Shown here: positions 16,772 through 29,017 of the stretch, piece after piece
Numbering within the stretch: the stretch's first letter is position 1
Layout: the number at the start of each line of letters is the position of its first letter
NCBI GenBank assembly: GCA_017626405.1
Contig: JAGAIS010000005.1
Span: forward strand, 4,086 to 68,085
Source of the DNA: Bacilli bacterium
GTDB taxonomy: Bacteria; Bacillota_I; Bacilli_A; RF39; UBA660
DNA: 64,000 nucleotides
Reading direction: 5' to 3'
The notes under the pieces: model-generated
What the model was told of the DNA's origin: nothing
The model's database searches: none
What the model saw: only the letters and a program-made list of their open reading frames with translations
Program-made: the position numbers and the translations under genes

Positions 16772-17515
16772 CTATACTTTGATTCGATTATATAGTTTCT
16801 CTAAATCAGTTTCTTGAATTTGGAATCCAGTGCCTCTATCTTGTATTTCACCTAAATGGTCTTCGTCTCTATAAATGCCAGCCTTGAAACATACTCTTAT
16901 AACTCCTTTTTCAATAAGAGTGATAAATTGTTCAAAATTTGTAAATTTGTAAAATTTTATTGCATAGTATTTGTAGTAGTCAACTCCTTTAATCTTATTT
17001 GGCCATGCTTCAATTAAAGCAAGTTTCTTCAACTTCTTTTCTAATTTTCCATTTAACAATTCAAAAGGCCAGTAGGTTATTCTTTCATAATCATTGAAAA
17101 ATCTATCGGTTATAACTAAATAAACTCTTTTTTCATTATAATCGACATCTAATTTAAATAAGTATCTATTTGCAACTATTTCGGAGTGATCTCCATAAGC
17201 TATAGCACTTAATACCTTAAACTGTTTAAATATCCTATCTGGATAGCCATATTTATCTCTCAATCTTTTAACTTCGAAATTTGTTTCACCTTTTGGTGCG
17301 CAATTAAAAAGAGTAATGTAACTTTTGCTATAACCTCTTTTTGTCTTTATTTCAATGCCTAAGTAATCTGGGGTATCATTGGAGTCTTCATCTTTACCAA
17401 GTAAATCTTCAAATGTTTTACCTATACCAGTAGTTCCCTTTCTAGAAGATCTAACATATCCCATATTTCTGATTCTTTCAAATTCTTTATTTAATAATCT
17501 AAATTCTTCGCTCAT
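16772..17515 (-). CDS. MvaI/BcnI family (MutH-like) PD-(D/E)xK endonuclease
   Basis: TGIGKTFEDLLG...PDYLGIEIKTKR...ITLF...YGYPD...DRGTGFQI. Confidence 0.85.
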   Translation of the reverse strand: MSEEFRLLNKEFERIRNMGYVRSSRKGTTGIGKTFEDLLGKDEDSNDTPDYLGIEIKTKRGYSKSYITLFNCAPKGETNFEVKRLRDKYGYPDRIFKQFKVLSAIAYGDHSEIVANRYLFKLDVDYNEKRVYLVITDRFFNDYERITYWPFELLNGKLEKKLKKLALIEAWPNKIKGVDYYKYYAIKFYKFTNFEQFITLIEKGVIRVCFKAGIYRDEDHLGEIQDRGTGFQIQETDLEKLYNRIKV

Positions 17516-17612: not shown

Positions 17613-18551
17613 TTATGAAATTTTTAACCCGCATCCAGGACAATAATCATTAGCGCCAATTAAAGATGAGCCACATCTCTGACATTTTAAATCTTCACTC
17701 TTATTATGTGTTGAGTTTTCCTCTTTTTTAGTTCCACCAAAAGCAATACTTTCGTTAGATGCTTCTTTTTGTTTATATTGTTCATATTTTGCTGTATCTA
17801 CATGAACTATATTATCGTTATTTTTTAATTGGTCTTCAATGGAGTCTATGCCAGATGAAAGTAGACTATTTTCTTCTTGATCAAATATTTCTATAATATC
17901 TTCAATATTATCTTCTATTATGGGAATATCGTTATTTTTTTTGCTTTCTAGTTCTTCATCAACTATTTCATTTTCTAAATAATAATCATCTATAATTGAA
18001 TTTTCCTCTATGTTTTGTATCATTTCTTCAGTTTTTGAAACAAAAGTATTGTTAATACTATTAATATTGTTAATATCTTGTGTCTCTTCTCTAAAATATA
18101 AGTCATCTATGTCTAGATTGCTTTCTAAATTGTTTTCAATATTTTCTAATTCAAACAATGTCTTTATAGCTTTTCTTATATCCTTTGGTTTTTTACACTT
18201 ATCAGAAAATGCAATATAAAGCATAAAAGCATAAGGAAAAACAATTGATAAGTTCATCATCCATCTAGGTCTTTTGTATCTATTTAATAATTTATAGGGT
18301 AGTAAAATCATCACAATGACATTCACAAAAGGTATAAAGATTGTATAAAAAGGGATTTTCGCAATTTTGAACACTAAATAAAAGTTATAAAAGGGGATTA
18401 GTGAATAGAATTCCTTTATTTCCTCTTTTTTGAAAATGAACCATAATGATAATATGTAAGTAACAATCATAACTAACGAAAAAATACATAAAATGATTTC
18501 TGAAATTGGCAATAAATTATTCATAATTGGCAAAAATTTTTCAATGTTCAT
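17613..18551 (-). CDS. DUF5684-like membrane protein with acidic linker and C-terminal zinc ribbon
   Basis: LWFIFKK...SLIPFYN TM module; CQRCG...CPGCG at the C-terminus. Confidence 0.75.
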   Translation of the reverse strand: MNIEKFLPIMNNLLPISEIILCIFSLVMIVTYILSLWFIFKKEEIKEFYSLIPFYNFYLVFKIAKIPFYTIFIPFVNVIVMILLPYKLLNRYKRPRWMMNLSIVFPYAFMLYIAFSDKCKKPKDIRKAIKTLFELENIENNLESNLDIDDLYFREETQDINNINSINNTFVSKTEEMIQNIEENSIIDDYYLENEIVDEELESKKNNDIPIIEDNIEDIIEIFDQEENSLLSSGIDSIEDQLKNNDNIVHVDTAKYEQYKQKEASNESIAFGGTKKEENSTHNKSEDLKCQRCGSSLIGANDYCPGCGLKIS

Positions 18552-18623
18552 ACTATCCAACTCCTATTATAAGATAATTATACTAACAATAGTGTTAAAT
18601 ATCAAATAAAAAGTAGATAATAA

Positions 18624-20129
18624 TTATCTACTTAATCCATTTTCGTTTGAAAGTTCCATACTATTAATTTCGCGTTCAAATTCTTCTTTAAAAACATTCA
18701 AATCTAATTCAATTGGATTCTTCATTTGATCGAAATAGTATGTAATTTCTTCTACTAACTCATCGTATTTGCTCATTGCTTCATCATATGTCATATCAGA
18801 TGTTACATTATTCTTAATAAACATTCTTGTTATGTATTGGTATAATTCGTTAAAATCTTCAAACTCCGGTTCAATATAAGGTGTATATCTTAAAGCAGCT
18901 TCAGCATCAATTAGAGTAATAATATGATATGCATATTGTTCATCCTCCATGTACTCGTCCATTTTATCAATTAGATAATTAACACTATGATTCATGAAGT
19001 CTGCACCGTTATAGTCGATAGCATCTAATATTATTCTAAAATAGCTTGATTGAAGAGTATAGAAATTTGATTTATTTCCAAGCCCTTGCAATTCATAACA
19101 AAAATCAGTAATAAGAGCTTCCTCAATATACATTCCCATATTCATATCATCAAAGAATGAAACGAATATTTTCTTTCCGTCTTCTCTTTCAAATATAGTG
19201 TTTCTTGCACAATGAGTTAATTCATGTGCGACAATAATATAATCACTACTTTCTCGGCTTAAATCTATACCATCTAAAACATATATAGTGTTTTCACTCT
19301 TTTTATAACATGCAAGAGAAGTCGTAGATAATGTATGACGCGCCATTTCATCTTTTGTACAAACTTTAATTTCTAAAGTGGAAAGATTATGATAAAGTGT
19401 TGAAAAGTCAGAACCAGGATATAATCTATTCCAGTCTCTTACATATTGTAATATGAATTGCTTATAATCATTGTTTATTTTTGTATTACTATTAAGAGCA
19501 CTTTCTATTTGCTCTATAGTAACATTGCTATAACCATATACTTCTTCATATGCGTTACTATCTCTTACATATATACGATTTACATATTCTAATTCTTCGT
19601 AATCAGAAGCGTATTTAAAATCTATGCCATCATCAGCAGTTGCTAACAAATCTAAATAATTATCAACCTCTCCAACAATATTATTTTGAGAATCTGTGAT
19701 ATTGCTACTTTGATTGTTAGAAATTGCATCTACTTTTTCGGATTCATAACTCCCTTCTTCTATAGTTTCAGAGTCACTATATACGCTATTAGTATCAGTA
19801 TAAGCGTTTTTATATGATGGAAGATCTTCTAAAGTAAATGAAGGTTTTTGACCGCATCCAACTAGTAAAGATGAAGTTAAAGTAACTAAAACTCCGTATC
19901 TTATTGCTTTAGGAACAAAATGGAAATATTTTATCTTATCATTTTTTATGTTTTGAGAATGTCTACTGTAGTTAAATAAATAGTTTATTTCTATCAAATC
20001 GCTTAATTCAGGATAATAAAATTTTCCATCCTTAATTTCCAAAAAAGCAATCTTATTTGATTCGCTCATAAATAATTGATATCTTTTACTATTATATTTA
20101 AATCTTGCGATTTTTCTAAATTTATTCAT
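18624..20129 (-). CDS. membrane-anchored HExxH metallopeptidase-like protein
   Basis: AHELTH plus downstream EEA third-ligand helix; internal hydrophobic segment ending LLVGC; AGGTGG SD before ATG 20129. Confidence 0.65.
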   Translation of the reverse strand: MNKFRKIARFKYNSKRYQLFMSESNKIAFLEIKDGKFYYPELSDLIEINYLFNYSRHSQNIKNDKIKYFHFVPKAIRYGVLVTLTSSLLVGCGQKPSFTLEDLPSYKNAYTDTNSVYSDSETIEEGSYESEKVDAISNNQSSNITDSQNNIVGEVDNYLDLLATADDGIDFKYASDYEELEYVNRIYVRDSNAYEEVYGYSNVTIEQIESALNSNTKINNDYKQFILQYVRDWNRLYPGSDFSTLYHNLSTLEIKVCTKDEMARHTLSTTSLACYKKSENTIYVLDGIDLSRESSDYIIVAHELTHCARNTIFEREDGKKIFVSFFDDMNMGMYIEEALITDFCYELQGLGNKSNFYTLQSSYFRIILDAIDYNGADFMNHSVNYLIDKMDEYMEDEQYAYHIITLIDAEAALRYTPYIEPEFEDFNELYQYITRMFIKNNVTSDMTYDEAMSKYDELVEEITYYFDQMKNPIELDLNVFKEEFEREINSMELSNENGLSR

Positions 20130-20227
20130 ACAACCACCTATTATCATTATAACAAAATGCAATAATTAATTTTCTATTTTAGAACAATATTTAAAGTTAT
20201 TTACATAAAAATTAACAAATAATAATA

Positions 20228-20283: not shown

Positions 20284-23200
20284 ATGATTTGTTATATATT
20301 AAGAGATGATAAACTGGATAAATTGCAATTGCCAGCAAAGGTTTCAGGTGTTTATTCTATTTTAAACAATGAAAATAAAATGATTACTAACATCGAAGCT
20401 GAAAATGACAAATGGGTGATTAAATCAAACGATGATATAGAGATTCAGGCTAACGGGCAAGTAGTTAAAGATGTTGAATTAGTTAGTTTTTGTTTGTATG
20501 TAATAAAAGAAGTTAAAAAGGAATTAACTACGAAAATAATATCTTTACCAACATATGATAATAATGTTGAATACTATATAAGTAAAAAAGATACGATTAC
20601 TATAGGTTCATCAAATGATTGTTCAATTGTTTATAATATACCTGCAGTTTCTAGCACTCATGTAACACTAAGTAAAAGTGGGAATCATTGGGTTGCAAAG
20701 ACGGAAAACAAAGGAGCTTATATTAATAACAAACCATTTAGAAATAAAAACATGTTTCATGGTGATTATATATTTTTATATGGGCTTAAGATAATAGTAA
20801 TCAATAATTATTTTATAATTAACAAACCAAATAATGCGTTATCTATTAACCCGGAATGTTTTGAAAAAAAGCAAATAGATAAGCAAGTAATTACATATGA
20901 AAAAGAAATCCCAGATGATACGCCTTTATATAATAAAAACCAATTGTTTTTTAAAGCACCAAGATTTAAAAGCGTTATAGAAAAAGAACGCGTTGTAATT
21001 GATACTCCACCCGAAAGAGAAGAAACTTCGACAGATCCGGCAATTTTACAGGTTGGTCCGCGTTTGACAATGGTAATTACATCGGCATATACATTATTTA
21101 ATACTCTTCAAAGCTATATGTTAGGTGAAACTACTTTCGAAAGATGTATTCCATCTATACTTGCAATTGTAACATTATTACTTTCATCTTTCTTTTGGCC
21201 AACTATAACAAGAAAATATCATGCTAGAAGGATGAAAAAAGAAAATATTAGAAGATATAAGAAATATCGAAAGTATTTAGAAAAGAAAAAGAATAAAATT
21301 GATGAGATTAAATCGCTACAAAAACAAATATTAATTGAAAATAATATTCCATTAGAAGAATGTCAATCAATAATTTACAATAGAAAGAGAAATTTATGGG
21401 AAAGAAATATTGATCATGATGATTTCTTGGAAGCAAAAATAGGAATAGGAAGAGTAGAGACACAAATTGATATTGAAGATCCTTCAGATCGCTTTACTAT
21501 TGAAGATAGTGATGTCTTACAGGATGCTTTAGATGAAATTTTAGCTGAAGCTAAATATATGGATGATTGTCCTGTCAATGTGTCGTTTATAAAAAAACAA
21601 GTAGTTGCCATAGTTGGAAATGAATTAATGACTAAGTATTTCGTTGATAGTTTATTCTTACAATTTATGACATTCCATGCTTATAATGATTTAAAGATAG
21701 TAACTATAACTAATAAGAAAAACGAATATTTATGGGAGTATTTAAAAATAATACCTCATTCATGGGATGGAGCAAAGGAAAATAGATACTTTGCAACTAC
21801 TGCTGAAGAAGCTGCAGAAATTAATACCGAATTAGAAAAGGTATTTGGAGATCGTCGATCAGATGATGAAACTGTTAAATTAGAAGAAAATGGCGAACAA
21901 GGTGAAGAAAGACCAAGATATTTCGATTATCGTCCATATTATTTAATTTTCTTGGATGATTTGGAAACTGGAAGAAATTTATCTGCAATAAAAAAAATAT
22001 TATCATATAGAACAAATTTAGGATTTTCAATAATAATTAGAAATAATCGTCTATCTAATTTGCCTAGTGAATGTACTACATTTATCAATGTCGATGGGGA
22101 AAATTCTGGATTGTTCGAAAGTGAACTAGCTTCATACAATCAAAAACAGTTTAATGCAGAACTAAACAAGTCGATAGATATGTATGGATGTGCTGAACAA
22201 CTTGCAAATATTCCAATGGTTAAGGACAAAGGTAAATACGAACTTCCTTCGAGTGTATCTTTCCTATCAATATATAAAGTGGGAAAAGTTGAACAATTAA
22301 ATTCACTTGAAAGGTGGAAAACTAATAATCCAGTAGCATCTTTAGCAGTACCTATTGGTATTAATCAAGATGGAGAGATTTTTAAAATGGATGCCCATGA
22401 AAAAGGATGGGGACCTCATGGATTAGTTGCAGGTATGACTGGTTCAGGTAAATCAGAATGGATCATTACATACATATTATCTTTAGCAGTTAACTTTCAC
22501 CCAGATGAAGTACAGTTCGTACTGATAGACTATAAGGGTGGAGGTCTTGCATTATCGTTTGAAAATAAAGAGATGGGTATTAAGTTGCCACATTTAGCGG
22601 GTACAATAACAAACCTTGATAAATCAGCAATAAACCGTGCATTGACTTCTATTGAAGCTGAATTAAAGAGAAGACAAAATCTATTTAATGAAGCGAGAGA
22701 GAAACTTCATGAATCAAGCATTAATATTTATAAATATCAACAATATTATCGTAAAGGTATGTTGGATGAACCTATGTCGCATCTATTTATAATTTCCGAT
22801 GAGTTTGCAGAGTTAAAGTCGCAAGAACCAGAATTTTTGGATCAACTTGTTTCGACAGCTCGTATAGGTCGTTCTCTAGGAGTTCACCTAATCTTGGCAA
22901 CACAAAAACCAAGTGGTGTAGTTAATGATCAAATTTGGTCGAACTCAAGATTCCACGTTTGTTTAAGAGTTCAAGATAAGAGCGATTCACAAGAGATGAT
23001 TAAGAGCACAGATGCAGCAATGTTAAAAACTACAGGTTCTTTCTATTTACAAGTAGGTTATAATGAATACTTCAGTTTGGGACAAAGTGCTTGGGCTGGA
23101 GCTAAGTACTATCCATCAGATATTGTTAAAACTGATGTAGATCAGTCTGTTCAGTATATTGATAACATGGGAAAAACAATAAATAGTTATGATGAAAACA

Positions 23201-24861
23201 CATTTAAAGAGAATGTTAGAAAAGAAGATAACGGAGAAGAATTATTAAATATTGTCTCTTACATTTCGAAAATTTCTGAAGGTGAACATATTGTTGGTAA
23301 GCAATTATGGTTGCCAAATATCCCAGAAGAGATTATGTTAGCAGATGTTAAAAAGAGGTATAACCATCAACCAAAGCCTTATGATTTTACAACAGTTATT
23401 GGTGAATATGACAATCCTGCTCTTCAAGAGCAAAATGTGTTTACTTATAATTTAAAAGAAAATACGGCAATATTTGGTGAAACTGGTTCAGGTAAGGAAA
23501 ATCTAATATCGACAATATTATGGTCTAGTATGACAGAACATACTCCAACAGAGATTAATTACTATATTATTGATTTAGGTTCAGAGACCTTGAGAATGTT
23601 TAGCAAGTTCCCTCATGTTGGCGAAGTAGCTTTCATTGAAAATTTTGATACCATAATTGGAATTCTTCAAATGATTGAAGAAGAAATTGAGCGCAGAAAA
23701 GATTTGTTCGCAGATTATAATGGTAGTTATGAAGGCTATTTAAAAGAGAGCGGAAAGGCATTGCCTCTTTGGACAATTGTAATTAATGCATTTGATATAT
23801 TTCAAGAGAATCTACCTAGATTAGTTGATGCTGTAAACAATATGTTTAGAGACGGAGTTAAATATGGAATTACTTTCATTGTATCAGTTTCTTCGCAACA
23901 AGCATTACGTTCAAAAGTTGCAGCATTCTTTAAAAATAAGATTGTTCTTCATCAACCTGATGATACTAATTATCGCTCAATATTAGGCTGTGATAAAAAG
24001 CTTATTCCTCAAAACGCATATAGTAGAGGAATTGCAATTATTAAAGATGATCTTTTCTGTGAATTCCAAGGAGCATATATAGCAGAAAAAGCAAATATAA
24101 ACTCTATTGTTAGAAAGAATGCTGATAATTTTGCTGCTTATTACAAAGTAAGAGCTAAGTCGTTACCTAAGATACCAGATACAGTTACAAGTGAAGAATT
24201 ATCCAAATATATTACGACATTAGATAAATTTCCTATTGGTTACAATTTCCACGAAAAAAACATTTGTACATTTGACATGTTGAAACAGAAAATGTTTGTT
24301 ATGTGTGTTGATAATTTTAAAGATACAATTAATTCAATATATGGAATTGTAAATATGTTATCTAAGTCTCCGGGTACTAAGGTTAGAGTACTAGACTTTG
24401 ATAATATATATAAGGGAACTAATATGGAAATTCAATATTTTAATGAAAAATTGGATGCAACAATATTAGCATTGAAGGGAGATCTTGAAAAACGTACAGA
24501 TAATCAAGATCAAGGTATTACTTTTGTATTAGGTGTAGGATTGTATAAGAATAAATTAAAAGAAGTAGGTACTCAATACTTTGTAGATTACATTAATGCA
24601 ATTAATGATGCTAAAAAATCAACAATTATCTTAGTAGATACTTATGAAAGAATGAAACGACTAAGAATCGAAACTTGGTTCAAAAGTGTTAATACAAGTT
24701 ATGGTATATGGCTAGGTAATAATATTTCTAATCAAAACTTATTCAGTGTTAAGTCAATTACAATGGAAGATCGCAAAATTGTATATGAGGGTCTAGGATT
24801 TGTTATAAATGATGCCGAATATATGATGATTAAGACAGTATTGGATGGTGAGGATAGTTAA
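20284..24861 (+). CDS. essC: type VII secretion ATPase EssC/YukB (FHA-TM-FtsK domains)
   Basis: FHA (ITIGSS..C.I....VS..H), two TMs, LWER...DFL, HGLVAGMTGSGKS, LIDYKGG, DEFAELK, ARIGRSLGVHLILATQKP, second P-loop GETGSGKE. Confidence 0.95.
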   Translation: MICYILRDDKLDKLQLPAKVSGVYSILNNENKMITNIEAENDKWVIKSNDDIEIQANGQVVKDVELVSFCLYVIKEVKKELTTKIISLPTYDNNVEYYISKKDTITIGSSNDCSIVYNIPAVSSTHVTLSKSGNHWVAKTENKGAYINNKPFRNKNMFHGDYIFLYGLKIIVINNYFIINKPNNALSINPECFEKKQIDKQVITYEKEIPDDTPLYNKNQLFFKAPRFKSVIEKERVVIDTPPEREETSTDPAILQVGPRLTMVITSAYTLFNTLQSYMLGETTFERCIPSILAIVTLLLSSFFWPTITRKYHARRMKKENIRRYKKYRKYLEKKKNKIDEIKSLQKQILIENNIPLEECQSIIYNRKRNLWERNIDHDDFLEAKIGIGRVETQIDIEDPSDRFTIEDSDVLQDALDEILAEAKYMDDCPVNVSFIKKQVVAIVGNELMTKYFVDSLFLQFMTFHAYNDLKIVTITNKKNEYLWEYLKIIPHSWDGAKENRYFATTAEEAAEINTELEKVFGDRRSDDETVKLEENGEQGEERPRYFDYRPYYLIFLDDLETGRNLSAIKKILSYRTNLGFSIIIRNNRLSNLPSECTTFINVDGENSGLFESELASYNQKQFNAELNKSIDMYGCAEQLANIPMVKDKGKYELPSSVSFLSIYKVGKVEQLNSLERWKTNNPVASLAVPIGINQDGEIFKMDAHEKGWGPHGLVAGMTGSGKSEWIITYILSLAVNFHPDEVQFVLIDYKGGGLALSFENKEMGIKLPHLAGTITNLDKSAINRALTSIEAELKRRQNLFNEAREKLHESSINIYKYQQYYRKGMLDEPMSHLFIISDEFAELKSQEPEFLDQLVSTARIGRSLGVHLILATQKPSGVVNDQIWSNSRFHVCLRVQDKSDSQEMIKSTDAAMLKTTGSFYLQVGYNEYFSLGQSAWAGAKYYPSDIVKTDVDQSVQYIDNMGKTINSYDENTFKENVRKEDNGEELLNIVSYISKISEGEHIVGKQLWLPNIPEEIMLADVKKRYNHQPKPYDFTTVIGEYDNPALQEQNVFTYNLKENTAIFGETGSGKENLISTILWSSMTEHTPTEINYYIIDLGSETLRMFSKFPHVGEVAFIENFDTIIGILQMIEEEIERRKDLFADYNGSYEGYLKESGKALPLWTIVINAFDIFQENLPRLVDAVNNMFRDGVKYGITFIVSVSSQQALRSKVAAFFKNKIVLHQPDDTNYRSILGCDKKLIPQNAYSRGIAIIKDDLFCEFQGAYIAEKANINSIVRKNADNFAAYYKVRAKSLPKIPDTVTSEELSKYITTLDKFPIGYNFHEKNICTFDMLKQKMFVMCVDNFKDTINSIYGIVNMLSKSPGTKVRVLDFDNIYKGTNMEIQYFNEKLDATILALKGDLEKRTDNQDQGITFVLGVGLYKNKLKEVGTQYFVDYINAINDAKKSTIILVDTYERMKRLRIETWFKSVNTSYGIWLGNNISNQNLFSVKSITMEDRKIVYEGLGFVINDAEYMMIKTVLDGEDS

Positions 24862-25115
24862 TGGACTATAAGGTTTTAGTAACGGTGTTTGTTCCGGAAA
24901 TAGATCAAAAATTTGAATTCTATATACCTGTAAATAGATATGTAGAACAAGTAATAACTATTATTAATCAAGCAATAAATAATATAGTATTTGACCAATA
25001 TCCAATAAAGGACAATCTTCAATTATGCAATAGAAGAACTGGTGAAATATATAACAATGGATTATATGTTAGAAATACCAATATTAAAAATGGTACACAG
25101 CTTGTATTGTTTTAA
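24861..25115 (+). CDS. YukD/EsaB ubiquitin-like T7SS protein
   Basis: 84 aa beta-grasp pattern ending IKNGTQLVLF; translationally coupled to essC (TAATG). Confidence 0.75.
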   Translation: MDYKVLVTVFVPEIDQKFEFYIPVNRYVEQVITIINQAINNIVFDQYPIKDNLQLCNRRTGEIYNNGLYVRNTNIKNGTQLVLF

Positions 25116-25170
25116 ATGTAAAGCATAAGTAAATACTATTTACAAATAATAGATAACAAATATATAATAA

Positions 25171-25218
25171 AGTTAGAGTAGTGAACGATATAAATTACTC
25201 TAGCTTTATTTTTGTTTT
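25171..25218 (+). terminator. terminator/attenuator-like hairpin before the WXG cassette
   Basis: AGTTAGAGTAGT pairs with ATTACTCTAGCT (12 bp including G-U), followed by TTATTTTTGTTTT. Confidence 0.55.
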
Positions 25219-25233
25219 GAAAGGAGAATCTAT

Positions 25234-25606
25234 AGTGCGCGATGGCGGAGTGTCTTTTGGTTCAGATGCAGGTCAAGGAATCAAAGAGATAGAGTTAGAA
25301 AATTTAATTTTAGAACTTAACAATGATGTTGATGATATTGGTTCTATTTTGAGAAATATCGAAAATATTGTATATGATGTTCAAGATTATATTAAGGGGC
25401 CTGTAGGTGATGCTTTAATAAGCAAATTAGATAATTATAAACGTCAATTTGATTTGTTAAAGTCTAATCTACTAAGCTATCCCGATGATTTACTTGGTTT
25501 GAAAATTAGTATGGATGAGAATGATAAAGCCGCAAGAGATGCAATGACAGATTTATCTCAAAACATTAATGTAGAAGCCAATAAGATTAACAATAAGGAG
25601 GTATAA
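25234..25606 (+). CDS. WXG100-like helical hairpin protein (degenerate IKG turn)
   Basis: AAGGAG SD before GTG 25234; helix-IKGPVGDA-helix; located in the T7SS locus. Confidence 0.6.
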
Positions 25607-25609
25607 TTT

Positions 25610-25927
25610 ATGGCACAATTAAATATCGAACAAGCTGGTATTGGTTATGATACTGTAGGTATATCAAATTTCTTAAATAAATTAAATTTAGATGTTATTG
25701 ATGACCTAATTTCAAAATTACATAACAATATGGGAACTTTAAGAGCAGCAGTTGATCAAGTATGGGCTGGTCAATCAGCAAATGCTTTTAAAGAAAAATT
25801 AGAGAGAGACTCTGAAACAATGATACAAACATTAGAAGGAATTAAGGATGACGTTAAAGCAGAATTTGCTCAAATTGCACAAAATGTTGATAATTATGAC
25901 TCTGCTATAGCTGAATCATTAAGATAA
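25610..25927 (+). CDS. WXG100 family protein (EsxA-like)
   Basis: 105 aa, central VWAGQSANAF, strong AAGGAGG SD, highly-expressed-type codon use. Confidence 0.85.
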   Translation: MAQLNIEQAGIGYDTVGISNFLNKLNLDVIDDLISKLHNNMGTLRAAVDQVWAGQSANAFKEKLERDSETMIQTLEGIKDDVKAEFAQIAQNVDNYDSAIAESLR

Positions 25928-25941
25928 GGAGGAAACGGAAT

Positions 25942-26442
25942 ATGTCTATACAAAATCTCGTAGGAAATGGAATAAGCGACCTATATCATATGGGAACTGG
26001 AACTCTTCAAGAAATCGGAAGTAGAATTGAATCACTATTAAGTGGTGCTACTGCAAGACTTGAATCACTTTGGGATGGTGGATTCGTTGGTATTGATACT
26101 GCAAACTACACTATCTTAACTGAAGCAATTGATGCTCATGTTAAATCTCTAGAAGATATAATTAATAACTTTAACACAGAAGCTTATATTGATGGAGCTT
26201 TAAAAGGACAAGCAAGAGATGAAGCTGTTTTATATGTTAAAGCAATTAAACAATTATTAGAAGCTTATGCTACTACTTATAGACAATTTAATATTGCATT
26301 AACTGGTGCTGCTCATGGTGAAAGAATTGAAGATTCAAGTATCATGGCTCAAATGATAGCTGGAGATCAAAGTAATGCTCAAGCTATTAATTCTGATGCT
26401 CAAGCAATTCAAACTGAAGCATCTCAAATTAGAATTGACTAA
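25942..26442 (+). CDS. extended WXG100-like protein
   Basis: 166 aa, helical; ALKGQARD turn, N-terminal extension with LWDGG; AAGGAGG SD. Confidence 0.6.
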   Translation: MSIQNLVGNGISDLYHMGTGTLQEIGSRIESLLSGATARLESLWDGGFVGIDTANYTILTEAIDAHVKSLEDIINNFNTEAYIDGALKGQARDEAVLYVKAIKQLLEAYATTYRQFNIALTGAAHGERIEDSSIMAQMIAGDQSNAQAINSDAQAIQTEASQIRID

Positions 26443-26478: not shown

Positions 26479-26835
26479 ATGGCAAGTATTCCAGAGTTGA
26501 AAAGACTATTAACAGATTTTGCAAATTATAAGATTTCTGTCAGTGTTACAGCAAGTTATATGATTAAATCTTCTAATTCACTTGGAAGTGTTAGTGAAAC
26601 TGCTAATAATAATTACAGTATCAACGATGATGGAAGTAATTTAGGGGAAGTTGCAAAATCATTAAAAGAAAGCTGTGCTGAAACTTCTAACTATTTAAAA
26701 AATACAGTTATTCCTGCTATAGATACTAAGATGGATGAGATAGAACAAGAAATTAAAAGATTAGAGGAAGAAGAAAGACGTCGTGAAGAAGCGGAAGCTG
26801 CAAGGCGATCATCTTTCAGCTCTTTTAGGTGGTAG
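26479..26835 (+). CDS. small helical T7SS accessory protein (DUF5082/Lap-like)
   Basis: 118 aa, YSIND turn, ID.K..EIE..I..LEEEERRR C-terminal coiled coil. Confidence 0.55.
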   Translation: MASIPELKRLLTDFANYKISVSVTASYMIKSSNSLGSVSETANNNYSINDDGSNLGEVAKSLKESCAETSNYLKNTVIPAIDTKMDEIEQEIKRLEEEERRREEAEAARRSSFSSFRW

Positions 26836-26838
26836 CTT

Positions 26839-27159
26839 ATGAACGAAAATTATATAGAGTGTGATACAGAAAAAATCCAAGATGCGGGATTAAAGATTTG
26901 TGATTATTTAGATGAATTGCAATCAAAAGTAGATAATTTTTTTAAGAAAATAGAGAGCATTCCAGTTACTGGTGAATGGACCGGAAAGAATGCTGAAGTA
27001 TACAGTGAAAAAGTATATAGAGATTTAAACATATATACAAAGTTTATTTCGAATATGAAAGATATAGCTGACGAAATGAAGAGATTTTCGGGAGATACAG
27101 AAGCCAAAGTAAAATCTTGCGAAAGTGAAGTTCAGGGTACTAATTCAAGATATTATTAA
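26839..27159 (+). CDS. WXG100 family protein
   Basis: 106 aa, central EWTGKNAEVY. Confidence 0.8.
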   Translation: MNENYIECDTEKIQDAGLKICDYLDELQSKVDNFFKKIESIPVTGEWTGKNAEVYSEKVYRDLNIYTKFISNMKDIADEMKRFSGDTEAKVKSCESEVQGTNSRYY

Positions 27160-27177: not shown

Positions 27178-28161
27178 ATGAAGTTAAATATTTCAAATTC
27201 AGGTATATATGACCCTATTAAGAACGATTTAGAAGATGCTATAACAAATCTTAATAATGCAAAATCTATTCTAACTAGTCCTCCAGCTTCTTTTAGTCAA
27301 AGTGGATATATGTCTAGTTTACCATCTAAAATTAATAACTTGATTAGAAAAGTTACTAATTTGAGCAATTCTGCTTTGCGAATTGATCAAAAATATAAAG
27401 ATTATATATTAGATAAGAAAACCAAATTTAATAGTATAGATGATTATACATTAAATGAGAGAATAGGTCTTAGTGATCAATTTCAAATGTCTAGTTCAAA
27501 GTACAATGTTAATAGTGAGATTATTATGAACGAAAGTGGTATGTTGGTATTTAAAGCAATTGCTAGCGCAACAGGTATTAAATCTGCTTTAGATCATGGA
27601 TCTAGTAATATAAAAGATAGCAATGAACAACCAAGTAAAGAAGAAAAGGCATATATTAAAGGAACTCCAGATACGGTTAGTATCGAAACTGACGAACCTA
27701 TAGATAATGTTCCAAAAGAACCGGTTATTGAAAATCCAACTCCATCAAATGGAAATGGTGATATTCCAGGTACTCATTCTCCAGGTACAATGGAACCTTC
27801 ATATCAAGCGCAAGCATATAATTTATCTCCTGAAGAGTATAAGGTTCTTTGTGCTACAGTGTATGCAGAAGCTGCAGAAGGAAATGAGTATACTTATTCT
27901 GATACTATGGGAGTTACTTCTTCAATACTTAATAGAGTTGAAGCCGGTAACTGGGGCGGTTCAAGTGTAACAGAGGTAGTATCTGCACCTAATCAGTTTG
28001 AAGGTTATGGATATCAAAACCAAAAGTTTTCTCGTGCTATGAATGATCCTAGTTGTATTTCGCCAGAAATGATGCAAGCTATAAATGATACTCTTGCTGG
28101 AAGAAGAAATACTGAAGGCTATAGTTTTTATGGAAATGGAACACATAATGCATTTAGATAG
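27178..28161 (+). CDS. putative T7SS substrate with C-terminal SleB-like (Hydrolase_2) cell-wall hydrolase
   Basis: No signal peptide; helical N-terminus, Pro-rich linker, LCATVYAEA.EG...GV.SSILNRV...SVTEVV.APNQFE...GTHNAF. Confidence 0.85.
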   Translation: MKLNISNSGIYDPIKNDLEDAITNLNNAKSILTSPPASFSQSGYMSSLPSKINNLIRKVTNLSNSALRIDQKYKDYILDKKTKFNSIDDYTLNERIGLSDQFQMSSSKYNVNSEIIMNESGMLVFKAIASATGIKSALDHGSSNIKDSNEQPSKEEKAYIKGTPDTVSIETDEPIDNVPKEPVIENPTPSNGNGDIPGTHSPGTMEPSYQAQAYNLSPEEYKVLCATVYAEAAEGNEYTYSDTMGVTSSILNRVEAGNWGGSSVTEVVSAPNQFEGYGYQNQKFSRAMNDPSCISPEMMQAINDTLAGRRNTEGYSFYGNGTHNAFR

Positions 28162-28190
28162 AAGAATAATTTAAAAAATTATTCTTTTTT
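28162..28190 (+). terminator. intrinsic terminator closing the T7SS operon
   Basis: AAGAATAATTT-aaa-AAATTATTCTT followed by T-run immediately after the stop. Confidence 0.65.
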
Positions 28191-28204: not shown

Positions 28205-28945
28205 ATGAGCATTAATATTTTAAATAGTAAAGTAATAGATGATGAATATGAGTTAAGAGAATTGGAAATAGATAGCGAAAGAATTGTTTCTATCATGTCT
28301 TCTAATTCCTATCAATCTCTTTCATATATGGATAATGAAAAAGTGTTTGAAATATATGATAGTTATCCCAAACTCTATGATATTCTTTCTAATCTAGGTG
28401 CCGTTAATTCAGTTTTAGTATTAGGTGGTGGGGGTTTTTCTTATCCCAAATACTATATTAGCCATTATTCTGATAAAACAATGGATGTTATAGAAATAAA
28501 TTCAAAACTAATAGACATTTCGTTTAAATATCTATACCTAGATAGATTGTTTGCTGAACACGATCCGAATCATAAGAGATTAAATATATATTGTACTGAT
28601 GCCTATGATTTTATTATTAAGACAAATAGGAAATATGATGGAGTATTCATTGATTTATATGTAGATAATGAGCCACTAGATATAATTTTTGAAGAGAGAT
28701 TCATATATAATATTAAAAGAATCCTAAATAAAGACAAGTTTTTATCCATAAACTATATTTTACATGAAGGAAGTTTAGATAAATTTTATAAGTTCAAAGA
28801 ATTGTTATCTAAATACTTTACTAATACTAAAATAATAACAACAGATTATAATGTAAATTTGAGTGATAAAAATATATTTATTTTATGTTCGGATTCTGAT
28901 ATTACTATTCCCGATACTTATAAATATGTTGAGTATGAAAGATAG
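28205..28945 (+). CDS. spermidine synthase-like class I SAM-binding protein
   Basis: VLVLGGGGFSYPKY, DVIEIN, TDAYDFI, KYDGVFIDLY. Confidence 0.75.
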   Translation: MSINILNSKVIDDEYELRELEIDSERIVSIMSSNSYQSLSYMDNEKVFEIYDSYPKLYDILSNLGAVNSVLVLGGGGFSYPKYYISHYSDKTMDVIEINSKLIDISFKYLYLDRLFAEHDPNHKRLNIYCTDAYDFIIKTNRKYDGVFIDLYVDNEPLDIIFEERFIYNIKRILNKDKFLSINYILHEGSLDKFYKFKELLSKYFTNTKIITTDYNVNLSDKNIFILCSDSDITIPDTYKYVEYER

Positions 28946-29017
28946 GTGGAGTAATCTCCACTTTTTTAATTGGATAAAAGTTGATATAATATAAATATAC
29001 AGTTTGGAGGGCTTCAA

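Follow-up and report, generated by a model that had tools for sequence, protein, structure and literature searches.

The window analysed here, a stretch of 64,000 nucleotides from a Bacilli bacterium (contig JAGAIS010000005.1 of assembly GCA_017626405.1), carries a type VII secretion (essC) operon, and the final gene of that operon encodes a candidate type VII cargo: a hydrolase of the SleB/CwlJ type fused to a predicted helical N-terminal domain. We propose that this hydrolase is the main payload of the system, exported by the type VII machine and likelier to act on peptidoglycan outside the producer, and we put the probability of this reading at roughly 0.55. The broader claim, of a type VII cargo able to cut cell wall, whichever wall is its target, is likely; it roughly adds to the first reading an alternative in which the same enzyme opens the producer's own wall. 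Between the walls of others and the producer's own, the choice is close to even, with a target outside the producer, be it neighbouring cells or wall debris, somewhat more likely. We infer export, partner binding, catalytic activity and target from sequence comparison and structure prediction.

A predicted SleB fold with an invariant glutamate

We modelled the hydrolase with AlphaFold2 on a 23-sequence alignment. The C-terminal domain reached a predicted local distance difference test score (pLDDT) of about 85–93, and its closest structural matches were SleB chains: VIA-align gave Z 11.2 to 4fet_A (root-mean-square deviation 2.4, 104 aligned) and Z 10.8 to 4f55_A, with the next row at 7.2, and Foldseek ranked three SleB chains first at a probability of 0.99–1.00 and a TM score (target) of 0.57–0.61. 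Hydrolase_2 (PF07486) was the sole Pfam match, at 35.3 bits against a cut-off of 27 over residues 241–321 and at 39.1 bits in the scan of the genome; CHAP was not matched, nor was PG_binding_1 at E ≤ 0.1. When PDB sequences were searched, the lone C-domain had no match at E ≤ 10 and the full-length profile retrieved only chance helical matches. A profile of 70 sequences found 4fet at E 1.4e-14 and aligned the family motif VYaEA to VYGES of SleB, whose glutamate we take to be the catalytic residue.

This alignment makes Glu231 the presumed catalytic acid of the hydrolase. The residue sits just N-terminal of the Pfam match, but within the structural match to SleB. It is unchanged in 23 of 23 sequences of the close-relative alignment, which was drawn from 25 relatives and left out P0001 (identical to the window protein), P0010 and P0014. 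The same glutamate is invariant across the 70-sequence alignment (70/70), as are Asn252, Arg253 and Phe317. The larger alignment holds 69 of the 150 listed representatives; the Pfam scan took in 34 of the 150. The reading of a Pro-rich linker followed by a Hydrolase_2 domain that keeps the YAEA glutamate, first made from the letters alone, is borne out by Pfam, fold and alignment alike, and the enzyme would cleave glycan strands through Glu231.

In a single pairwise comparison with the orthologue at related locus L003, the ratio of nonsynonymous to synonymous substitution rates (dN/dS) was 0.09 for the C-domain, 0.26 for the N-domain and 0.45 for the linker, and identity among orthologues was 80–88% in the C-domain, 70–90% in the N-domain and 30–64% in the linker. 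By this estimate, the catalytic domain appears to be under purifying selection.

A predicted helical hairpin in place of a signal peptide

The N-terminus of the hydrolase is hydrophilic. Along the whole protein, the top 19-residue Kyte-Doolittle window has a mean of 1.11 (residues 120–138), too low for a Sec signal or a membrane helix, so that the lack of a Sec signal noted in the original prediction holds up. A crude hydropathy rule gave the same answer for 42 of the 45 closest relatives, in which no hydrophobic segment was found.

In place of a signal, AlphaFold2 predicted a hairpin made of helix 9–33, the loop SPPASFS at residues 34–40 and helix 41–85, at pLDDT 60–72. This agrees with the helix-PPASF-helix N-terminus ending in FNSID that had been described earlier. 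FNSID occupies residues 84–88 at the terminus of helix 2 and presents the spacing F84-x-x-x-D88. In 7 of 7 orthologues with the same N-domain type, F84, N85 and D89 are unchanged and position 88 is D or E; because these orthologues are 64–81% identical overall, the conservation is weak evidence.

The N-domain matched neither LXG nor WXG100 of Pfam at E ≤ 0.1, and its loop contains no WxG. Its profile was also compared by hhalign with those of p118 and p106, the two small proteins encoded directly upstream; the probabilities of 0.1 and 0.3 indicate no relationship. No paralogues of the N-domain or of the small proteins were found elsewhere in the genome. Between hairpin and enzyme, the linker region was modelled with pLDDT below 50 over residues 104–191 and is rich in proline (9 of the 56 residues from 150 to 205).

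The hydrolase family tracks essC within the genus

Among 5.8 billion proteins, 25 relatives of the hydrolase were found at E ≤ 0.001. The C-domain alone had 169 matches at this threshold, 23 of them at E ≤ 1e-10, among 1.84 billion representatives. Where the surroundings of a relative could be read, an EssC homologue lay less than 10 kb away in 5 of 5 genome loci and 2 of 3 metagenome loci; the contig of the third metagenome locus stops before the expected place of essC. The hydrolase gene again closes the cluster in related loci and is then followed by prolyl-tRNA-synthetase-like and topoisomerase genes.

We next took a census of 22 genomes of the genus, including this one. Twelve are essC-positive and 10 are essC-negative; ten of the positive calls exceeded the family cut-off, essC of genome G153 is split across two contig ends, and that of G170 is cut at a contig end. 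At E ≤ 1e-5, the C-domain was matched in 11 of the 12 essC-positive genomes versus none of the 10 essC-negative ones. In nine genomes the match lies on the same contig as essC and less than 6 kb from it. G160 has its match on a 3.3-kb contig, G166 has a sole match elsewhere in an unrelated context (L019), and G162, on a short contig, has none. Locus L022 (G166:C27:1-14000) is a natural 'knock-out': its gene order is that of loci L004–L006, with no hydrolase gene between a small acidic protein and proS.

Outside the genus, the C-domain was matched in 0 of 6 essC-positive genomes from other genera of the family, and an order-wide sample of 151 genomes yielded distant relatives only, at 33–39% identity. 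The close hydrolase family therefore appears confined to the genus in the genomes sampled. As the enzyme was not found without the machine, and the machine was found without the enzyme, the pattern is that of cargo, and the hydrolase looks accessory to the type VII machine rather than part of its core.

One enzyme domain on exchangeable N-domains

Type VII toxins that vary in their enzymatic part would lead one to expect a polymorphic C-domain, and the original prediction had raised this possibility. The close relatives show the reverse: the N-domain is the part that is swapped. In the 25 close relatives, the region before an SPGT motif falls into 5 unrelated N-clusters, while the same proteins share one C-domain type with pairwise identities of 46–100% (median 70%).

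Two of these N-domains have kin among the small proteins of type VII loci. The N-domain fused to the hydrolase in P0015, P0020 and P0023 is homologous to p166, a free protein of the window's operon (BLASTP E 8e-18, 31% over 158 residues), and the N-type of L004 is paralogous to a free 116-aa protein encoded at that locus (E 4e-26). In the distant relative P0044, a WXG100 domain above the Pfam cut-off (31.1 bits against 27.3) precedes the hydrolase domain. Elsewhere among the distant relatives we found a Sec-type signal (P0030), membrane anchors, and LysM, ChW or phage tail lysozyme domains. This variety is consistent with an enzyme that acts beyond the membrane and has acquired several routes of delivery. 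A single weak phage match (35% identity, E 3e-5) and no plasmid match were obtained for the hydrolase, and we rejected an origin from phage or plasmid.

The theme extends to other cargo in the genus. At L016:9898-12165 (G158) and L021:1-2393 (G160), tandem genes without signals share a common helical N-domain and differ in their C-domains, which comprise LysM with Hydrolase_2, LysM with an unassigned region, and an unassigned C-domain. These genes look like a small array of wall-directed type VII cargo, and LysM wall-binding domains sit on signal-less proteins with common N-domains. In the Atlas, the cargo C-domain of G160 fell with unnamed clusters at 0.96; the nearest named one, '3D domain' at 0.88, is a lead only. 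From domain content, the cell wall appears to be the common theme of the cargo at these loci.

A predicted complex of the N-domain with two small proteins

To ask how the hydrolase might be recognised, we modelled residues 1–110 together with p118 and p106. The three-chain model scored 0.81, 0.82 and 0.79 in three runs, the runs shared at least 80% of their contacts, and partner pLDDT was 79–80. The best of three controls scored 0.01, and exchanging p118 for an unrelated protein lowered the complex score from 0.81 to 0.01. In calibration, the mark for this score was reached by 116 of 157 solved complexes and by 2 of 215 mismatched pairs, counts that apply here only roughly, given our own alignments and three chains. 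A complex of the N-domain with the proteins encoded from 26479 and 26839, which the original prediction had put forward for modelling, is predicted at 0.81 against 0.01 for the best control, and the models support binding of the N-domain to p118 and p106.

In the models, the main predicted contact of the N-domain is p118 and not the WxG protein p106, although p106 also makes contacts. The W47-T-G49 motif (WxG) of p106 is invariant in 10 of 10 homologues, and one orthologue, P0175, reaches 25.1 bits against WXG100. For p118 we found 9 homologues and no family.

We propose the following course of export. In the cytoplasm, the N-terminal hairpin would pack with p118 and p106 into a helical bundle, comparable to that of LXG toxins with Lap1 and Lap2 and to the pairing in ESX substrates of an export-arm motif (here F84xxxD88 on the cargo) with the WxG of the partner. 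EssC would recognise this composite signal and export the hydrolase. Outside the membrane, the disordered linker would extend the reach of the catalytic domain to the glycan strands, which Glu231 would cut.

An unusual type VII operon

The features of the locus are listed in Table 1.

Table 1. Features of the type VII locus, in window coordinates
Feature	Position	Strand	Description and basis
315-aa membrane protein	17613-18560	-	DUF5684 with zinc ribbon; Pfam DUF5684 33.1 bits
512-aa single-pass membrane protein	18624-20162	-	HELTH motif; homologues in L004-L006, L013-L017, L022
EssC	20284-24861	+	FHA and FtsK/SpoIIIE ATPase, type VII motor; TIGR03928 918.9 bits against cut-off 778.4
p84	24861-25115	+	84 aa, of EsaB/YukD size and position; directly 3' of essC
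p141	25181-25606	+	Small helical protein; weakly similar to p118 (E 1e-3)
p105	25610-25927	+	WXG100-like, paralogue of p106 (E 6e-6); Pfam WXG100 19.5 bits, below cut-off
p166	25942-26442	+	Free helical protein; homologous to the N-domain fused to the hydrolase in P0015, P0020, P0023
p118	26479-26835	+	Helical, acidic/basic tail; main predicted N-domain partner (complex model)
p106	26839-27159	+	WXG100-like, predicted N-domain partner; Pfam WXG100 20.9 bits, under cut-off 27.3
Hydrolase	27178-28161	+	327 aa; hairpin N-domain, disordered linker, SleB/CwlJ-fold (Hydrolase_2) C-domain; candidate type VII cargo
N-domain	27178-27507	+	Residues 1-110; predicted hairpin plus third helix 92-109
Linker	27508-27768	+	Residues 111-197; disordered, Pro-rich, fastest-evolving part of the hydrolase
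Catalytic domain	27769-28158	+	Residues 198-327; SleB catalytic fold
Glu231 codon	27868-27870	+	GAA (YAEA); presumed catalytic acid, from alignment with the SleB glutamate
Terminator-like hairpin	28160-28188	+	13 bp, AT-rich, plus T run; directly 3' of the hydrolase stop; weak

EssC is followed on the forward strand by p84 and then by the small helical proteins p141, p105, p166, p118 and p106, before the hydrolase closes the operon. Since p141 resembles p118 and p105 resembles p106, and each pair precedes a longer helical protein, the series reads as two modules, [p141, p105, p166] and [p118, p106, hydrolase]. From its kinship with fused N-domains, p166 may be a cargo-type targeting domain without an enzyme. 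A similarity between p141 and the N-domain appeared only with composition statistics off (E 0.012), and we claim no homology.

The machine itself is only partly familiar. p84 is kept beside essC in L003–L007, L013, L014, L016–L018, L020 and L022, and it has no match to YukD in Pfam. The HELTH (HExxH) protein has no family match. ORFs that look like the DUF5684 protein edge L004–L006, L016, L017, L020 and L022, the last without a hydrolase gene. Neither EssB/YukC nor the N-terminal family of EsaA was matched in the genome with PF10140, TIGR03926 and TIGR03929; the assembly comprises 1.25 Mb in 11 contigs and is 88.7% complete. By these searches the type VII core appears unusual, with an EssC above the equivalog cut-off for the b-type system of Bacillota (T7SSb) and with EssB/YukC and EsaA not found.

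Against the L003 orthologues, identity declines along the operon, from 96% in EssC through 93, 89, 88, 88, 86 and 82% to 71% in the hydrolase, and is back at 92% in the topoisomerase. On this comparison, the cargo end of the operon appears to be the fastest evolving.

Whose wall the enzyme would cut

In the window as well as at L003–L007 and L018, none of the ORFs between essC and the housekeeping genes shows the signal peptide, lipobox or membrane segment of an immunity candidate, and a classical effector-immunity pair is therefore unlikely. The original proposal of type VII cargo that is targeted by something other than LXG and comes without an immunity gene is supported by the tracking of essC, the fusions, the complex model and the lack of LXG. 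The hydrolase is also the sole enzyme-bearing candidate cargo found in the genome, which is why we regard it as the main payload and not as a helper. If it is aimed outwards, the producer would be shielded by the nature or the scarcity of its own wall and not by an immunity protein.

Genes for wall synthesis bear directly on this point. The question of mur and penicillin-binding protein (PBP) genes, raised by the original prediction, has a divided answer: PBPs, MurG and a MraY-type gene are present, whereas MurB and most Mur ligases were not detected. In this genome the PBP transpeptidase domain occurs in 4 ORFs, next to the MraY-type gene there is one of MurG type, and the latter was matched in 21 of the 22 genus genomes. 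MurB_C was found in none of the 22 genus genomes, and Mur_ligase_C in 2 of 22, versus 68 of 80 other genomes sampled from the family, mostly in 3–6 places each. The sole Mur_ligase_M match in the genome is weak; it belongs to a 483-aa ORF beside ftsA/ftsZ (G000:C5:483320-484768) with a P-loop and a four-Cys ribbon, which we take to resemble MurT rather than MurC–F. The MurE- and MurF-like ORFs of G171 and G160 have no match in this genome, although their neighbours are syntenic. Because the same family search works on other genomes of the family, the loss of MurB and the Mur ligases seems real and lineage-specific. The idea of an intrinsically insensitive producer gains some substance from a genus without detectable MurB and mostly without Mur ligases. 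The precursor genes, however, are missing across the genus, and the hydrolase occurs in its essC-positive half only.

A tempting extension is that the type VII system of this genus is a machine for attacking or harvesting peptidoglycan, exporting a lytic transglycosylase and LysM cargo so that the muropeptides of neighbours are eaten or reused for the producer's own wall or cortex. A producer of this kind could do without an immunity protein. Neither AnmK nor MurQ was matched in any of the 22 genus genomes, so the standard route of muropeptide recycling lends the idea no support, and we consider it a long shot.

Several observations weigh against an exported enzyme aimed outwards. The N-domain has no detectable sequence kinship to WXG100, LXG or its predicted partners, its hairpin alone was modelled with the low pLDDT given above, and the structural matches of that hairpin are generic, tied at Z ~7 with many unrelated helical proteins, and were set aside as not diagnostic. 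Genome G170 (L018:391-1131) shares the gene order of the window, but its homologues of p118 and p106 are followed by a 246-aa Hydrolase_2 protein whose N-region is of low complexity, rich in Ser, Asn and Gln, with no evident hairpin; its C-domain, of a second and more distant Hydrolase_2 subtype present at type VII loci of the genus, is 32% identical to the window's, though EssC is 67% identical. Because of G170, some relatives fall outside the targeting model, and conservation of the C-domain is uneven. The genomes counted for co-occurrence are kin and often incomplete, which makes the counts descriptive rather than independent. Hydrolase_2 cargo in 11 of 12 essC-positive genomes looks fixed, unlike a variable weapon. 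As to the target, PBPs, MurG and the MraY-type gene suggest that the producer presumably builds some wall and is itself exposed. Finally, Spo0A, SpoIVA, SpoVAC/EB and YunB mark the genome as that of a spore former, and CwlJ, a Hydrolase_2 enzyme without a signal, reaches the spore cortex without crossing a membrane.

The alternative that survives best keeps type VII export and turns the enzyme inwards. As a self-directed helper, the hydrolase would locally open the producer's own wall for the apparatus or for small substrates, as an analogue of EssH or of the lytic transglycosylases dedicated to type III and type IV systems, but exported by its own machine. We regard this as possible rather than likely. 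In its favour, no immunity gene was found, Hydrolase_2 cargo is kept in 11 of 12 essC-positive genomes of the genus despite exchange of N-domain or C-subtype, and purifying selection on the catalytic domain is strong (dN/dS 0.09). EsaA and EssB/YukC, wall-spanning and core parts of T7SSb, were not found in this 88.7% complete genome, and there is precedent in EssH, on which both secretion and the assembly of EsaA through the wall are reported to depend (PMC13059805). The otherwise intact locus L022, which lacks the gene, argues against an indispensable helper, as does the absence of a match in 6 of 6 essC-positive genomes of other genera. At this locus we see no second cargo with an enzyme for a helper to assist, and LXG proteins were not matched in the genus. 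With the standard precursor route apparently missing, a thick self-wall as a barrier is also less certain.

A second alternative removes export altogether: the hydrolase would be a CwlJ-like cortex-lytic or mother-cell enzyme that crosses no membrane and merely lies at the end of the essC operon. The fold family is that of spore-cortex-lytic enzymes, the sporulation genes named above are in the genome, and the hydrolase lacks a signal peptide, as CwlJ does. We nevertheless judge it improbable, since none of the 10 genomes without essC in this spore-forming genus has a relative, the N-domains are homologous to free proteins of type VII loci or, distantly (P0044), to WXG100, and the complex model with p118 and p106 passes its controls. 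A separate and more canonical Hydrolase_2 gene, at G000:C1:6740-7060 (57 bits, 160-aa frame), is the likelier germination enzyme.

Least of all do we credit a classical polymorphic antibacterial toxin whose immunity protein is encoded elsewhere or went unrecognised: tandem genes of G158 and G160 with one N-domain and different C-domains, and the differing C-domain subtypes in the orthologous slot of this genome and G170, point that way, but at the window, L003–L007 and L018 the stretch from essC to the housekeeping genes is free of immunity candidates with signal, lipobox or membrane segment, close relatives keep the enzymatic domain and vary the N-domain, the C-domain has a dN/dS of 0.09, and the activity class is always Hydrolase_2, which together make such a toxin very improbable.

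Comparison with known systems

The nearest relatives in design are LXG toxins with their Lap1 and Lap2 targeting factors, such as TelC with LapC1 and LapC2 of Streptococcus intermedius, which combine a helical targeting N-terminus with a C-terminal enzyme (PMC9600955). In that account, two small WXG100-like proteins encoded upstream of the toxin (Lap1 and Lap2) form a pre-secretion complex with it, and export depends on an FxxxD motif that Lap1 carries close to the end of its second helix. Our hydrolase likewise has two small WXG100-like helical proteins directly upstream and a predicted pre-secretion bundle, and it has an F-x-x-x-D near the end of a second helix, but here on the cargo rather than on Lap1. 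The differences are equally plain. LXG (PF04740) was not matched in the hydrolase at E ≤ 0.1 or in any of the 22 genus genomes, p118 and p106 do not match DUF3130 or DUF3958 in Pfam as the Lap families do, no immunity gene adjoins, and the enzyme domain is kept while the targeting domain is swapped.

ESX pairs of the actinobacterial-type machine (T7SSa) offer a second parallel. Their bipartite signal joins YxxxD/E on one partner to WxG on the other (PMC9600955), and here the cargo carries F84xxxD88 and the adjoining p106 the invariant WxG, an arrangement nearer to this signal than to the motif on Lap1. Unlike ESX, the system belongs to a different phylum and machine, the FHA-EssC of Bacillota, and the main predicted contact is p118.

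Among wall-directed proteins, TelC acts on the wall pathway outside the membrane, and the accessible part of the same source names as open questions how substrates cross the producer's wall and how toxins pass the target's (PMC10765036). EssH of Staphylococcus aureus is a CHAP hydrolase that is exported by Sec, is not itself a type VII substrate and is needed for secretion; its authors state, in the text available, that it has no obvious counterpart in Bacilli or Streptococci (PMC13059805). The two enzymes share a link of a peptidoglycan hydrolase to an essC locus, an N-domain of no known family and C-terminal catalysis. They differ in that ours has a SleB fold in place of a CHAP amidase/peptidase, has no Sec signal, and is missing from the intact locus L022 (comparison with the available text of PMC13059805). 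In the portions of the literature that we surveyed, EssH is the only wall hydrolase tied to a type VII locus of Bacillota.

The survey of systems T7SSb to T7SSj by Garrett, Higginson and Palmer (2024) describes substrates flanked by one or two small WXG100-related genes, and the available main text does not use the words 'hydrolase', 'peptidoglycan' or 'LysM' (PMC11217815). Like those systems, the present one has an EssC with FHA, a small protein in the EsaB/YukD position and WXG100-like proteins, though these score below the Pfam cut-off. Unlike in them, genes for a kinase, a PPM phosphatase, EspG-like, TsdI-like, DUF5050 or Tad proteins were not found beside essC, and its set of components (DUF5684 protein, 512-aa HExxH protein, p84) fits none of T7SSb to T7SSj as the available text of the survey describes them.

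The catalytic part has its own kin. With SleB and CwlJ, germination-specific cortex-lytic enzymes of Bacillus (structures 4fet and 4f55), the hydrolase shares the catalytic fold, the Glu motif and an NR motif at about 20% identity. SleB is built from a signal peptide, PG_binding_1 and Hydrolase_2, and has YpeB as its partner. Our protein has neither signal peptide nor PG_binding_1, but a hairpin and a linker in their stead, and unlike SleB and CwlJ it sits in an essC operon and was found only in essC-positive genomes of its genus.

We found no description in the literature of a SleB-type or other glycan-cutting wall hydrolase exported by type VII secretion. The enzyme class, the targeting domains, the reversed polymorphism and the missing immunity gene are new here, whereas a type VII substrate with Lap-like partners is of a known kind. 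If the proposal is right, it adds a new class of type VII cargo, new non-LXG targeting domains with their own partner proteins, and a non-Sec exit route for wall hydrolases of Gram-positive bacteria. One enzyme domain on five or more targeting domains would also be test material for recognition by EssC, and the apparent loss of the precursor pathway in the genus adds an ecological angle.

Flanks and regulatory elements

At the hydrolase gene itself, the ATG lies 18 nt 3' of the preceding stop and a Shine-Dalgarno-like AGGTGAG stretch stands upstream. The original prediction ended the feature at 28190, which includes the hairpin beyond the stop at 28161. It had described this hairpin as a terminator: the AT-rich stem with its T run is indeed there, but it is weak (−8.5 kcal/mol, z −2.43, equalled by 2 of 200 shuffles) and was not called by a consensus terminator scan. 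A G+C-richer site lies at 28944–28963, 3' of the next gene, which is spermidine-synthase-like (SpeE-like) and is followed by the topoisomerase gene.

Upstream, between p84 and p141, a promoter-like match at 25139–25168 (+) comprises TTTACA and TATAAT at a spacing of 18 nt (11 of 12 positions, the best of the region). The scan found 70 sites where 59.5 were expected, which makes any single match weak; its position gives a hint of a separate promoter for the small proteins together with the hydrolase. Just past the type VII locus on the other side, at 16772–17515 (−), lies a gene for a restriction endonuclease of the MvaI/BcnI family (152 bits).

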